Source of the DNA: a virus
Taxonomy: Duplodnaviria > Heunggongvirae > Uroviricota > Caudoviricetes
Length of the DNA: 4,462 nt
Strand: one strand, 5' to 3'
IMG/VR virus record: IMGVR_UViG_2778261594_000004
Span: 1-4,462 of that record
This document shows positions 1 to 1,998 of this stretch, one piece after another. The position numbers and the translations under genes are program-made. The notes beneath the pieces were generated by a model that had not been told where the DNA came from, made no database searches, and worked only from the letters and a program-made list of their open reading frames with translations. How positions within the stretch are numbered: the stretch's first letter is position 1; each line of letters begins with the position of its first letter.

Positions 1-214
1 CAGCCATACTTACCGCCGCGCCATTTCGCGGATTGCCACAACCGGAAGCGCACGATCGAATTAAATTTAACGACGACATATACAGAGAGACTAACTTCGC
101 CGTGCGCTTTCGTGTTATGCCCTGACTTTTCAGGGATATGTTCTTTCAGTAAACTGTCAGTGCCGGATTCTTATCCGTGTCCGGCGCACGTGCTCTACCT
201 CACCCGTGAATAAA

Positions 215-601
215 TTAATGATTAATTGATATTTTGTTGTTTGATTCAACTTTCCCATCGGATGTGTGATGCTTTAAATCACAGGAGTTAATACTGCTTG
301 CTGTAAAATGATTTTCAAGGGGAGCTATTCGAATCCCTTTCTTTTTCATTAACAAGCCAAATCCTTTATTAATGATGTCCATTAATTCCAGAAAGTATTT
401 TTCATGTAAATCCTGTTTATCAGAGAGCTGCTTCTCTTCGTACAGCCCGATAAAAGCTCGGCGTACGTTACCGGATATATTATCGATGGTTTCTTTTTCT
501 ACGGTACTCAGGTCAAGAGTGGCCAGTTGAGAACGAACTATATTCGCAGCCATTTCCTGGAATGGTAGTGGTAAATCTTTAAATTCCATCGTCAACCTCA
601 T
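215..601 (-). CDS. Hypothetical protein, 124-128 aa, AT-rich accessory gene downstream of cI; function not recognisable
   Basis: Uninterrupted 128-codon ORF in DNA that is only about 25-38% GC in three hand-counted 60-nt stretches (241-420), where stop codons are frequent, so coding is likely. Two in-frame ATG starts: 601..599, which overlaps the TGA stop of the upstream small ORF as TGATG, and 589..587, which has a GAGG Shine-Dalgarno 6 nt upstream. Predicted protein is hydrophilic and K/E-rich with no obvious transmembrane segment. No motif I recognise; not N-like (no Arg-rich N-terminus). Confidence 0.7.
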   Translation of the reverse strand: MRLTMEFKDLPLPFQEMAANIVRSQLATLDLSTVEKETIDNISGNVRRAFIGLYEEKQLSDKQDLHEKYFLELMDIINKGFGLLMKKKGIRIAPLENHFTASSINSCDLKHHTSDGKVESNNKISINH

Positions 602-753
602 CAGTCAGTGTTTCTGGTTAACCAGCGACGCGCGCCAGCTTCAGTTTTAAACGTTTTGCTTCTGGTATACGTCATCGCGGTAAACGTGCCGTCCTGGTTG
701 GGAAACACGCCGCATACCAGAGATTCGTTGTTGCCAAGATTGAGCGTATCCAT
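601..753 (-). CDS. Small hypothetical protein, 50 aa (MDTLNLGNNESLVCGVFPNQDGTFTAMTYTRSKTFKTEAGARRWLTRNTD), first gene of the accessory cassette
   Basis: Hand translation of the minus strand: ATG at 753..751 with GAGG 5 nt upstream, in-frame TAG upstream, TGA stop at 603..601 sharing one base with the ATG of the 128-aa ORF. Missing from the supplied ORF track, apparently because it is short. About 57% GC in a sampled stretch (661-720). Competes with the plus-strand ORF 608..793, which has a GTG start and no SD. Confidence 0.45.
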   Translation of the reverse strand: MDTLNLGNNESLVCGVFPNQDGTFTAMTYTRSKTFKTEAGARRWLTRNTD

Positions 754-928
754 GTTGACCTCATTTACCCTTAACGCCGGGTCGCGGAACTAAAAACCTG
801 CTGCGCTGTTATACAAAGTGTTCCCGCCGTCATGTTCATACGCCTCGGGCTGGCTACTTAACCCCTTGCCACTGCCGGGTAACTCGAAGTATTGCCCTGC
901 ATTCTGTGAAGCGGGGTGGGTTGTAATG

Positions 929-957
929 AATATAAGAATATTTAGTTTTGCCGTCAA
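929..957 (-). promoter_or_regulatory. Putative sigma70 promoter for the accessory cassette, reading leftward
   Basis: Minus-strand -35 TTGACG (957..952), exact 17-nt spacer, -10 TATATT (934..929); predicted start near 922. Overlapped and flanked by two copies of the TGAATATAA-containing repeat element. Confidence 0.5.
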
Positions 958-976
958 GTTGAATATAAATATTTTT

Positions 977-1003
977 AAGGTAAAAGGCCGGCAAAGCCGA
1001 CCT
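977..1003 (-). terminator. Putative rho-independent terminator downstream of cI
   Basis: On the minus-strand RNA, AGGUCGGC-UUU-GCCGGCCU forms an 8-bp GC-rich stem with one G-U pair (1003..985), followed by UUUACCUU. Lies 24 nt after the cI stop. The 3-nt loop and interrupted U-tract make it only moderately convincing. Confidence 0.45.
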
Positions 1004-1026
1004 CTGATTACAGGGCAAAGCGGGAG

Positions 1027-1671
1027 CTAGAGGCTGAACTGAACACCTTTTGCTACAGCAACGATGTTACATTCCGGTGTAAGTAAGGATGATTGATAGC
1101 GTGGGTTAAGGGGGGCTAAGTACACGAGCTTTCCATCAATAACTAATTTTTTTATAGTCATGGATGGTTCGTTTGTGAGTGGATCTGGGACTATTACTGC
1201 GACGATGCTACCATTTTTATATTTTTCGCCAGGCCTCATGATCACTGTGGCTCCAACTGGAATGCTTGGGGACCCTGATGGATTGTGCATAGTATCATCA
1301 GGCATTGAAACGGCAAAATCTCCCTCCTTGACATCAAAGAATGTGGTGATCCTGTCGACATTTCCCATAGTTTTCTCTCCTTTTAATATTAGGAAAGAAA
1401 TCGCTTCTCCCCAAGAAAGGTATGGGATTTGGGTACCTGGATTTTTCTGCACAAGGGATGATTCAGGTGATGATACTCCATACAGGAGATAGGACTCAGT
1501 AGTGCCTAGTGCTAGGGCTAATTTACTAAGAGCTTTGCTACCTGGTTCGTTTAGATCTTTCTCCCAGTATCCTATTGTTACCCCAGTTACGCCAGAAAGC
1601 TTGCCAAGTTCAACTTGGGTCAGACCTTTGTCTTTTCTGAGTTTCTTAAGCCTAATGCCAAGGCTTTCCAT
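1027..1671 (-). CDS. cI: Phage repressor, lambda cI-like (N-terminal XRE-type HTH, C-terminal S24/LexA-like autopeptidase domain)
   Basis: 214-aa ORF with GGGAG SD 6 nt upstream of ATG 1671..1669. The C-terminal 90 aa aligns by eye with lambda cI: AVSM vs GNSM (catalytic Ser), PSIPVGATVIMRPGE vs PSFPDGMLILVDPEQ, TIKKL vs TFKKL (catalytic Lys), LAPLNPRYQ vs LQPLNPQYP, PECNIVAVAKGV vs CNESCSVVGKV. N-terminus has a typical HTH (LTQVELGKLSGVTGVTIGYWEKD). Confidence 0.93.
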   Translation of the reverse strand: MESLGIRLKKLRKDKGLTQVELGKLSGVTGVTIGYWEKDLNEPGSKALSKLALALGTTESYLLYGVSSPESSLVQKNPGTQIPYLSWGEAISFLILKGEKTMGNVDRITTFFDVKEGDFAVSMPDDTMHNPSGSPSIPVGATVIMRPGEKYKNGSIVAVIVPDPLTNEPSMTIKKLVIDGKLVYLAPLNPRYQSSLLTPECNIVAVAKGVQFSL

Positions 1672-1770
1672 TATTTTCTCCCGCGAATTGAATATAAATT
1701 ATTTTAGATTGTATTGACCTAAAAAAAATTACCCTTTAATCTAAAAATACTTAGTTTTAAGGAGGGCGAA
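1672..1770. promoter_or_regulatory. Divergent cI/cro control region (putative PR-like and PRM-like promoters with candidate operator repeats)
   Basis: 99-bp AT-rich spacer between divergent cI and cro starts. Plus-strand -35 TTGACC (1714-1719) with candidate -10 TTTAAT (1735-1740, 15-nt spacer) or TAATCT (1737-1742, 17-nt spacer). Minus-strand TATATT (1696..1691) is a candidate PRM-like -10 with a poor -35. Contains a 9-bp inverted repeat TTTTAGATT (1702-1710) / AATCTAAAA (1738-1746) and one copy of the TTGAATATAAAT element (1688-1699). Exact promoter and operator assignment is uncertain. Confidence 0.7.
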
Positions 1771-1998
1771 ATGCGAGTTGATGAACTTGTCCAGTTTTTT
1801 GGTTCTGTCCAAAGAGTCGCTGATTTTTATGGGGTAACCCGAGAAGCTATATACATGTGGCGTAAGCGTCCCGGCGAAATAGTTCCCAAGGGGAGGGCTG
1901 CTGAAGCAGTTGCATACTCCAAGGGAAAATTATCGTTGAACCCAGAACTTTACAAAAAGAAGGATAACACCTCGAACGAAAGGAAAAATGATTCATGA
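1771..1998 (+). CDS. Cro-like transcriptional regulator (YdaS/Cro family HTH)
   Basis: 75-aa ORF with AAGGAGG SD 5 nt upstream. Divergent from the repressor. The pattern ELxxFFGSxxxVAxxYGVTREAIYMW resembles the YdaS/Cro family as I remember it. Stop overlaps the next gene start (ATGA). Confidence 0.85.
   Translation: MRVDELVQFFGSVQRVADFYGVTREAIYMWRKRPGEIVPKGRAAEAVAYSKGKLSLNPELYKKKDNTSNERKNDS

Follow-up and report, generated by a model that had tools for sequence, protein, structure and literature searches.

A 20-bp dyad at the OL and OR positions of a lambda-like Escherichia coli prophage, probable operator of its cI-type repressor

A short AT-rich element is repeated in the stretch of viral DNA considered here (the window, 4,462 nucleotides). 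Judging from the letters and their comparison with relatives, it is very probably the operator of a prophage repressor of the cI type, and by analogy also of Cro, at the OL and OR positions of a lambda-like Escherichia coli prophage. Several hallmarks of lambdoid immunity are found together: a repressor with HTH and S24 domains divergent from cro, repeated dyads at OR lying on PR and PRM, and the same dyad at PL. The arrangement is ordinary, a classic lambdoid OL/OR system that follows the design of lambda and Qin and displays a new immunity specificity, not a new principle; the operator sequence itself had apparently not been described before. A sequence-only reading of the window had proposed that a common motif links the cI/cro control region to a leftward promoter, with the repressor or Cro in command. 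This link holds, and such control is its best explanation, whereas the assignment of the promoter to an accessory cassette has to be given up.

Genes and promoters of the immunity region

The repressor (214 aa; 1027-1671, minus strand) associates an HTH_3 N-terminal domain with a Peptidase_S24-like C-terminal domain (Pfam). It belongs to PHROG 4, transcriptional repressor, and its nearest solved structures are P22 C2 and lambda cI. Divergent from it and 99 bp away, cro (75 aa; 1771-1998, plus strand; P22_Cro family, Pfam PF14549) is followed by a YdaT/CII-like gene and then by replication genes. Leftward, the PL operon opens with an orthologue of ydfA (DUF1391; 601-753, minus strand; Pfam PF07151, E 4e-29) which, together with its ribosome-binding leader, aligns with ydfA of Qin when the K-12 dicA-ydfA region is used for comparison. 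The second gene is a 128-aa ORF (215-601, minus strand) standing in place of ydfB/ydfC, a member of PHROG 6937 (E 2e-76) of unknown function, labelled hypothetical in E. coli genomes. In a near-identical genome (L001) and in the prophage L090, discussed below, the leftward run comprises ydfA, dicB, DUF1482/ydfD, a RecE-type exonuclease, xis and int.

Between the repressor gene and PL lies a likely intrinsic terminator of that gene (984-1004, minus strand), a hairpin followed by a U-rich tract: RNA folding gives a 9-bp stem and then UUUACCUU, and the stem is kept in relatives despite base changes, even though a simple terminator scan did not call it. The predicted PL (957-929, minus strand) has a -35 box TTGACG at 957-952, a 17-nt spacer and a -10 box TATATT at 934-929; it agrees with the consensus at 10 of 12 positions in a promoter scan and would start near 922. 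The candidate PR (1714-1742, plus strand), read directly from the sequence, combines TTGACC at 1714-1719 with TAATCT at 1737-1742, again 17 nt apart. It would start near 1749. It fell below the threshold of the scan because its -10 matches only three positions in six; in the same register the -10 of Xenorhabdus reads TAGTAT and that of Arsenophonus TAGAAT. The presumed PRM (minus strand) is proposed from its -10, TATATT at 1696-1691; it would lack a -35 box and start near 1684. A minus-strand scan match at 1698-1670 (TTTATA-17-AATAAT) was discarded as PRM: with a -10 that overlaps the ATG of the repressor, it could not express the gene.

From a repeated motif to a dyad with five sites

Searching the window for TGAATATAA-N5-TTTAR yields exactly three matches, all on the plus strand (927-945, 960-978 and 1689-1707). 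The three copies announced earlier, at 925-943, 957-976 and 1688-1707, do exist, then, with coordinates off by 0-3 nt, and the exact identity noticed between the second and the third corresponds to a 12-mer, TTGAATATAAAT, common to 959-970 and 1688-1699. Their relation to promoters had also been seen correctly. The first lies on the -10 of the leftward promoter (929-934, TATATT on the minus strand), the second, as a full dyad at 962-981, nearly abuts TTGACG at 952-957, and the third sits on the PRM-like -10 upstream of the repressor gene (1691-1696, TATATT on the minus strand).

The repeat is real, but its definition needed amendment. The operator unit is a 20-bp dyad with consensus AATCTAA-N6-TTAGATT, present at five sites in the window, and the TG of TGAAT, formerly counted in the motif, stays outside the conserved element: it varies at OL1 and OL2 of relatives (TAAATCTAA, TAAAACTAA, GGAATCTAA, TGTGATCTAG). 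At PL, the strong site OL1 (929-948, AATATAA-GAATAT-TTAGTTT) overlaps the -10 and the spacer; OL2 (962-981, AATATAA-ATATTT-TTAAGGT), with a weak right half, is found just upstream of the -35, 33 bp away centre to centre. The cI/cro intergenic region carries three more sites, two strong and one weak, with centres 22 and 25 bp apart. The OR3-like site (1691-1710, AATATAA-ATTATT-TTAGATT) has the presumed PRM -10 as its left half; the weak OR2-like site (1716-1735, GACCTAA-AAAAAA-TTACCCT) overlaps the PR -35 and spacer; the OR1-like site (1738-1757, AATCTAA-AAATAC-TTAGTTT) extends over the PR -10 and the start region. The latter, the strongest of all and located on the cro promoter, was missing from the initial list of three copies.

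Two other ways of organizing these repeats were tried and rejected. Operators with long spacers, suggested by the inverted-repeat pairings 933-944/966-977 and 1695-1707/1719-1731, result from pairing two neighbouring dyads, and it is the N6 register that is conserved across genera. Rfam detected no RNA family, either in the window or along the extended left arm of L090, and an explanation of the repeats or of the leader at the RNA level was dropped.

Is the motif more than AT-rich promoter DNA?

The motif might merely be promoter DNA that resembles itself, with recurring -10-like or UP-element-like sequences (AATATAA, akin to TATAAT, and A/T tracts) and no common binding protein. The AATATAA half-site of OL1 and OR3 doubles as the minus-strand -10 hexamer TATATT, which is why the motif had looked promoter-like at first reading; read in reverse complement, it is indeed a good -10 in these two copies. 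The regions involved contain 21-41% G+C, and the shared 12-mer, taken alone, is only moderately unusual (local p about 0.01, shuffle mean 8.0). The gapped pattern tells another story: it has no match in 200 shuffles of the whole window, and three copies were reached in none of 5000 local shuffles, which preserved dinucleotides and were limited to the AT-rich intergenic stretches 900-1026 and 1672-1770. These patterns came from the same data, and an independent weight-matrix test was therefore run, trained exclusively on sites of other genera (Xenorhabdus, Arsenophonus, Phlomobacter). Its three best matches in the whole window are OR1 (20.6 bits), OR3 (19.5 bits) and OL1 (17.7 bits), whereas the best score of a local shuffle has its 99th percentile at 12.0 bits. 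The comparison of a matrix with shuffled sequence, proposed as a check when the motif was noticed, puts three sites far above chance. OL2 (4.4 bits) and OR2 (5.7 bits) are among the window's six best, and are individually not significant, below the 95th percentile of shuffles, a point in favour of coincidence. By contrast, OR1 has the dyad without any -10-like AATATAA, and a heteroimmune prophage displays, at the same positions, an unrelated dyad that contains G+C. All in all, chance resemblance among promoters appears extremely improbable.

Conservation of the sites and exchange of the immunity module

The comparative set was derived from a search of viral contigs, a search of genome contigs having given few close relatives. 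Across 50 related E. coli loci the TAA/TTAG cores are kept in place while the flanks drift. A set of 34 unique OL variants, only 74-79% identical over the region, shows no change in the half-site cores or in the -35 (GTCAAG of the PL -35 in 34/34), spacers and flanks being variable. At OL1 the TAA and ATTTAGTTTT columns never change, and position 932 is C in 25 of the 34 variants, so that the consensus becomes CTAA; substitutions at 932 and 965 go to this consensus C. At OL2, AT.TA (963-967) and TTT (974-976) are conserved, with variable flanks. On the OR side, OR3 is identical in all 27 unique variants and OR1 is a perfect dyad, AATCTAA-AAATAC-TTAGATT, in most E. coli relatives; with 88-100% identity over the entire intergenic region, however, OR conservation among E. 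coli loci says nothing by itself.

More distant repressors, from Arsenophonus, Phlomobacter and Xenorhabdus, are 45-53% identical to that of the window and keep the HTH stretch TQV.LGK..GV[TS]GVT[IV]GYWEKDLNEP. CTAA-N6-TTAG sites are kept in these genera as well: OR has three, and OL in Xenorhabdus loci has two, the second one 33-35 bp from OL1 in L006 and L007. Xenorhabdus hominickii L006 has a good site, GATCTAA-ATGAAA-TTAGGAT, at the position equivalent to OR2. In L007 the OL pair is located some 800 bp from the repressor gene, and the pair therefore travels with PL.

The reverse situation is illustrated by prophage L090, whose left arm is 99% identical and whose repressor is different. Where the window has its OL and OR sites, L090 has GTAAC-N4-GTTAC; the window's motif is absent from these positions, and the motif of L090 is absent from the window. 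Similarity to heteroimmune prophages stops within PL, at about 930. The sequence AATGAA (924-929) belongs to the common start region of PL, since heteroimmune L090 also has it. Together with the distant repressors, L090 shows that the operator covaries with the repressor type, as a module exchangeable between otherwise homologous phages. This bears on yet another possibility, that a nucleoid protein of the host (of the IHF, Fis or H-NS type) binds this AT-rich DNA in place of the phage repressor. For Qin, interference by H-NS/Cnu at the operator of DicA is reported (PMC3441716), and the base composition would suit such proteins. Yet the IHF consensus WATCAANNNNTTR has no match in the window, the motif changes with the repressor type although the host remains E. 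coli, and it stays constant with the recognition helix of the repressor across host genera. We give a host protein hardly any credit as the reader of this sequence, and retain the phage repressor. No named phage in the collection shares the repressor above 43% identity, apart from vB_EcoS-689R5 and vB_EcoM-606R7, both induced prophages of E. coli, in which it is 93.5% identical.

The leftward promoter

What had been taken for the promoter of an accessory cassette is the early-left promoter PL of the prophage, equivalent to dicBp, which precedes ydfA in Qin. It sits between the repressor terminator and the ydfA orthologue, and in genomes near-identical overall or in their left arm, genes in the same direction run on to dicB, DUF1482/ydfD, the exonuclease, xis and int. 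To be sure, ydfA and the 128-aa ORF might have formed a moron-like cassette separate from the early operons, with a motif that couples its expression positively to lysogeny: the place of ydfB/ydfC is taken by a variable insert, the 128-aa ORF, whose function is unknown, and the position of OL2, upstream of the -35, is one from which activators can act. Arguing against this, OL1 spans the -10 and spacer, where binding represses, and L001 and L090 show no other leftward promoter candidate or regulator from PL to dicB, exonuclease, xis and int. In Qin, the homologous promoter dicBp, an analogue of PL located upstream of ydfA, is repressed 22-fold by DicA via operators shared with the dicA-dicC region, and transcripts run from upstream of ydfA to dicF, other promoters not being evidenced (PMC10448788). 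An autonomous cassette switched on by lysogeny is, in our opinion, very unlikely.

The analysis supports instead repressor control of the leftward promoter, which would amount to repression of an early operon in the lysogen. The coupling to lysogeny put forward at the outset thus takes the opposite sign: the geometry of OL1 is repressive, and lysogeny would not be what turns these genes on. Because OL1 covers the -10 and spacer, they should be silent in the lysogen and come on at induction.

A plausible switch and what it is good for

In a lysogen, repressor dimers would fill OR1 and OR2 as well as OL1 and OL2, the weak sites being filled cooperatively. Occupation of OR1 and OR2 would shut PR, with cro, ydaT and the replication genes, and occupation of OL1 and OL2 would shut PL, with ydfA and the 128-aa ORF, followed in related genomes by dicB, exonuclease, xis and int. 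Bound at OR2, whose centre lies about 41.5 bp upstream of where PRM is predicted to start, the repressor probably stimulates this -35-less promoter in the manner of lambda cI, and high repressor, or Cro, at OR3 would turn PRM off. Once the repressor is inactivated, both early promoters would fire. OL2 may alternatively, or additionally, act as an UP-type element rich in A+T.

How the repressor comes to be inactivated is a separate matter. Its translation contains no Ala-Gly or Cys-Gly dipeptide, and a Thr aligns with the catalytic Ser149 of lambda (DDTM vs GNSM), the Lys (KKL) being kept. Of the features expected for RecA-stimulated self-cleavage, the Ala-Gly site is missing and the Ser/Lys dyad retains its Lys alone, which bears on the induction route, not on operator function. 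A broader view may be entertained tentatively, with the odds somewhat against it as a whole. A single immunity group, with one operator code, would span Escherichia, Arsenophonus, Phlomobacter and Xenorhabdus; in E. coli and Arsenophonus/Phlomobacter the repressor (Thr for the catalytic Ser, no Ala-Gly) could not cleave itself, and the OL/OR switch would be flipped by an antirepressor or some other signal and not by RecA-mediated cleavage, as with DicA/Rem or the Gifsy repressors; the dual coding of AATATAA as TATATT would tune PL and PRM.

The practical outcome is an operator code, AATCTAA-N6-TTAGATT, and a map of five sites, assigned to one repressor type. This type occurs in Enterobacterales associated with insects and nematodes and in several hundred complete E. 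coli genomes, among which STEC are numerous; up to 7 matching places were seen in a single genome. The code allows one to predict which resident prophages are homoimmune, and which promoter controls the early-left operon containing dicB in these strains; it also points to the positions whose mutation would lock or release the prophage.

Comparison with known systems

Among solved structures, the one closest to the DNA-binding domain is the N-terminal domain of P22 C2 (E 9e-7), and Cro falls in the Pfam family P22_Cro; the similarity is low, however. The operator sequence of P22 differs from that described here.

Qin, in E. coli K-12, is much closer in layout, with a cro-like gene, a divergent repressor, and a PL-like promoter directly upstream of ydfA, oriented toward dicB. 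In both cases operators are common to the divergent-promoter region and to PL or dicBp, and the operator is a 20-bp 7-6-7 inverted repeat, Oc in the case of DicA being TTGTTAG-TCATAA-CTAACAA (PMC3441716). However, the repressor has 214 aa and an S24-like C-terminal domain, whereas DicA has 135 aa and no such domain, and the 128-aa ORF occupies the position of ydfB/ydfC. Immunity specificity differs as well, because the half-sites differ (AATCTAA...TTAGATT here, TTGTTAG...CTAACAA in Qin). DicF was not found by Rfam in the window or in L090 (6300-8100).

Lambda departs from the present system in several respects. Its operator is 17 bp long, unlike the 20-bp dyad of unrelated sequence seen here; only two OL sites were found in the window, 33 bp apart; OL and OR are separated by about 760 bp instead of some 2.3 kb; the window has no rexAB and no N gene; and the repressor has Thr for the catalytic Ser149 and no Ala-Gly. 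The likeness in architecture is nevertheless considerable. The C-terminal domain of the repressor is homologous to that of lambda cI, the immunity-specific module is bounded on the left by OL, operators of the same family recur at PL, and a tripartite OR separates the divergent cI and cro, with site centres predicted at about -16.5, -41.5 and -63.5 relative to PRM, against about -19, -42 and -66 in lambda.

Gene content and distribution

The window (4.46 kb) comes from an E. coli prophage of lambdoid, Rac/Qin type, and spans its immunity and early region. On the minus strand the window carries a 128-aa ORF (215-601; PHROG 6937, function unknown), a ydfA/DUF1391 gene (601-753) and a 214-aa cI-type repressor with HTH_3 and Peptidase_S24-like domains (1027-1671). 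Cro, of the P22_Cro family, lies on the plus strand (1771-1998), followed rightward by a YdaT/CII-like gene, a DnaT-domain replication protein and a lambda-P-like protein. The 128-aa ORF shares its N-terminal 60 residues with three other PHROGs; it sits in the ydfB/ydfC place of Qin and phage 689R5, hence in a variable slot of the early-left operon. Many GTCACG-type words in the replication protein gene (2620-2960; tgtcacgac, gtcacgacg and similar) look like iterons of an origin embedded in an O-like gene, as in lambda. The stretch 780-1800 is 99.5% identical to prophages of STEC strains from cattle and human, and at least 80% of it is present in 474 of 5426 complete E. coli genomes. Leftward from the repressor, a near-identical genome has ydfA, dicB, DUF1482 (ydfD-like), a RecE-type exonuclease, then xis and int; the same run is found in L090, a heteroimmune prophage with a left arm 99% identical to window 1-800.

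From a repeat to five probable operator sites

A motif repeated three times had been proposed from the sequence-only reading, and the repeat is real: TGAATATAA-N5-TTTAR matches exactly three times (927-945, 960-978 and 1689-1707, 0-3 nt from the positions first assigned), with the 12-mer TTGAATATAAAT common to 959-970 and 1688-1699. The concern, raised at the same time, that AT-richness might produce such copies was justified, and shuffling, with dinucleotides preserved, was therefore confined to the two stretches between genes, of 41% and 26% G+C. Three copies were reached in 0 of 5000 such shuffles; the 12-mer on its own is only moderately unusual (local p ~0.01).

Comparison with relatives identifies the conserved element as a 20-bp dyad of consensus AATCTAA-N6-TTAGATT. 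AATMTAA-N6-TTAR matches exactly four sites in the window, and with the core TAA-N6-TTA a fifth appears in the control region. Two sites lie at the leftward promoter PL, OL1 (929-948, AATATAA-GAATAT-TTAGTTT) and OL2 (962-981, AATATAA-ATATTT-TTAAGGT); three lie between repressor and cro, OR3 (1691-1710, AATATAA-ATTATT-TTAGATT), OR2 (1716-1735, GACCTAA-AAAAAA-TTACCCT) and OR1 (1738-1757, AATCTAA-AAATAC-TTAGTTT). The original three copies are OL1, OL2 and OR3; OR2 and the best site, OR1, had been overlooked. Because these patterns had been fitted to the window, it was also scanned, against local AT-rich background, with a symmetrised weight matrix whose training sites came exclusively from prophages of Arsenophonus, Phlomobacter and Xenorhabdus. 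OR1 (20.6 bits), OR3 (19.5) and OL1 (17.7) outscore all other positions in the window; in local shuffles the best score has a 99th percentile of 12.0 bits. OR2 (5.7 bits) and OL2 (4.4 bits) are within the six best of the window, not individually significant; they are weak sites, supported by their position and by conservation among relatives.

Placement on predicted promoters

The sole strong promoter called by a consensus scan of 760-1800 is TTGACG-17-TATATT (minus strand, 957-929; 10 of 12 matches). First taken for the promoter of an accessory cassette, it is instead the predicted PL of the early-left operon. OL1 overlies its -10 and spacer; OL2, centred 33 bp from the centre of OL1, is placed immediately upstream of the -35. 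The repressor stop codon is separated from OL2 by a minus-strand hairpin with a U-rich tail (984-1004), a plausible terminator of the repressor gene. TTGACC (1714-1719), a 17-nt spacer and TAATCT (1737-1742) are likely to form PR, which the consensus scan did not call; this -10 is weak against consensus, and the same register reads TAGTAT in Xenorhabdus and TAGAAT in Arsenophonus. OR1 overlies the predicted PR -10 and start, OR2 its -35 and spacer. Inside OR3, the minus-strand TATATT (1696-1691), followed by GGGAGA and ATG, is the likely -10 of PRM, for which a good -35 is absent. With a PRM start predicted near 1684, OR3, OR2 and OR1 are centred at about -16.5, -41.5 and -63.5, close to the layout of lambda PRM. 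The AATATAA half-site of OL1 and OR3 also encodes a minus-strand TATATT -10, which explains why the motif looks promoter-like.

Conservation and exchange with the repressor

Scanning viral contigs gave 47 loci with a repressor 91-100% identical; together with other E. coli-type loci, they make a footprint set of 50, with 34 distinct OL and 27 distinct OR sequences. The OL region is informative, as it is just 74-79% identical in a diverged group. Invariant in 34/34 variants are AA 929-930, TAA 933-935 and ATTTAGTTTT 940-949 in OL1, the -35 GTCAAG, and AT 963-964, TA 966-967 and TTT 974-976 in OL2, while spacers, inter-site region and flanks vary. C occupies both 932 and 965 in 25 of the 34 variants, hence the consensus CTAA, and OR1 is in most relatives the perfect dyad AATCTAA-AAATAC-TTAGATT. 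The TG of TGAAT in the motif as first read is not conserved among relatives. In a Collinsella MAG bin, a 1.8-kb contig (JAIHTM010000357.1) encodes an E. coli-type repressor with 93% identity; it is probably a piece of enterobacterial prophage that was binned wrongly.

The operator extends to other genera. Repressors of Arsenophonus nasoniae, Candidatus Phlomobacter and two Xenorhabdus species are only 45-53% identical to that of the window, with the helix-turn-helix stretch TQV.LGK..GV[TS]GVT[IV]GYWEKDLNEP nearly unchanged. In OR, their loci show three sites of the CTAA-N6-TTAG type, at spacings of 25 + 24 bp (30 + 24 in Phlomobacter) versus 25 + 22 in E. coli, the middle one falling below threshold in X. 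santafensis. At the OR2 position X. hominickii has a good site, GATCTAA-ATGAAA-TTAGGAT, which supports the weak OR2 of the window. At the leftward promoter, each Xenorhabdus locus carries a pair of such sites separated by 35 bp; in Arsenophonus OL1 is clear and a second site weak and sub-threshold, and at the Phlomobacter locus no OL site was detected. In X. santafensis the OL pair is found ~800 bp beyond the repressor gene, so that the pair goes with the promoter and not with the end of the gene; the distance is ~150-185 bp in X. hominickii and ~55-90 bp in E. coli. The X. santafensis gap (~660-1500 in window orientation) could hold an inserted gene; rexAB occupies the same position in lambda.

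L090 has the same left arm and a repressor only 28% identical, with another recognition helix. Its operator, GTAAC-N4-GTTAC (L090 7933-7946 and 8695-8756), occurs once at the OL1 equivalent and twice in the cI/cro region; the motif of the window is absent from these positions in L090, and that of L090 is absent from the window. Homology between the window and heteroimmune phages ends at ~930, exactly at the PL -10. This end, and the swap of operator with repressor, are classic marks of an immunity module that can be exchanged and has OL as its border. One GTAAC-N4-GTTAC copy of L090 falls within the 5' end annotated for its repressor gene, and the protein alignment has a 15-residue N-terminal overhang, which suggests that the annotated start is too far upstream. 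Thousands of heteroimmune E. coli prophages share the segment from 780 to ~930, matched in 3752 of 5426 genomes, with homology ending at the PL -10 (window ~907-935, L090 7900-7930). The ydfA leader (~140 nt, 780-922) is conserved far more widely than the immunity module, which suggests that its RNA or DNA has a function beyond spacing.

A proposed regulatory scheme

The analysis shows the sites, their symmetry, placement on predicted promoter elements, conservation and covariation with the repressor; the scheme that follows is inferred from established lambdoid biology and the Qin precedent. In a lysogen, repressor dimers would occupy OR1/OR2 and OL1/OL2, filling the weak sites cooperatively and repressing PR and PL. 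Bound at OR2, the repressor would activate the -35-less PRM, while OR3 would serve negative autoregulation and the shut-off of PRM by Cro. The proposal that the leftward promoter is regulated by repressor or Cro through a shared motif is supported; its coupling to lysogeny, first read as expression, would be repression during lysogeny.

Relation to known systems

The feature is real, and belongs to the textbook lambdoid operator/repressor class with a new specificity. The closest repressors are those of two induced E. coli prophages (93.5%), mEp460-type phages (~42%) and phage 21 (32%); no named, studied phage with the repressor of the window was found, nor, in a limited literature search, a description of AATCTAA-N6-TTAGATT. 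Among solved structures, the P22 C2 N-terminal domain is closest to the DNA-binding domain. Ala-Gly and Cys-Gly dipeptides are absent from the repressor (1027-1671, minus strand; region considered, residues ~85-130), which may lack self-cleavage on SOS induction, like the DicA or Gifsy repressors. Where lambda cI has the catalytic Ser149, the alignment gives Thr (DDTM versus GNSM), and the catalytic Lys (KKL) is kept; the Ser149 position is Thr in the Arsenophonus and Phlomobacter homologues and Ser in Xenorhabdus.

The overall arrangement is that of lambda OL/OR, and closer still that of the dicA-dicC/dicBp locus of Qin, the cryptic prophage of E. coli K-12, where ydfA and its leader align with those of the window. 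The dicBp promoter, upstream of ydfA, is described as lambda PL-like and repressed 22-fold by DicA, and three operator sequences are described for the dicA-dicC and dicA-dicBp intergenic regions (PMC10448788). The DicA operator Oc, TTGTTAGTCATAACTAACAA (PMC3441716), and that of the window are alike 20-bp 7-6-7 inverted repeats. However, DicA has 135 aa, versus 214 aa with an S24-like domain in the repressor of the window, and the half-site sequences differ; the window thus represents another immunity specificity within a Qin-type design.
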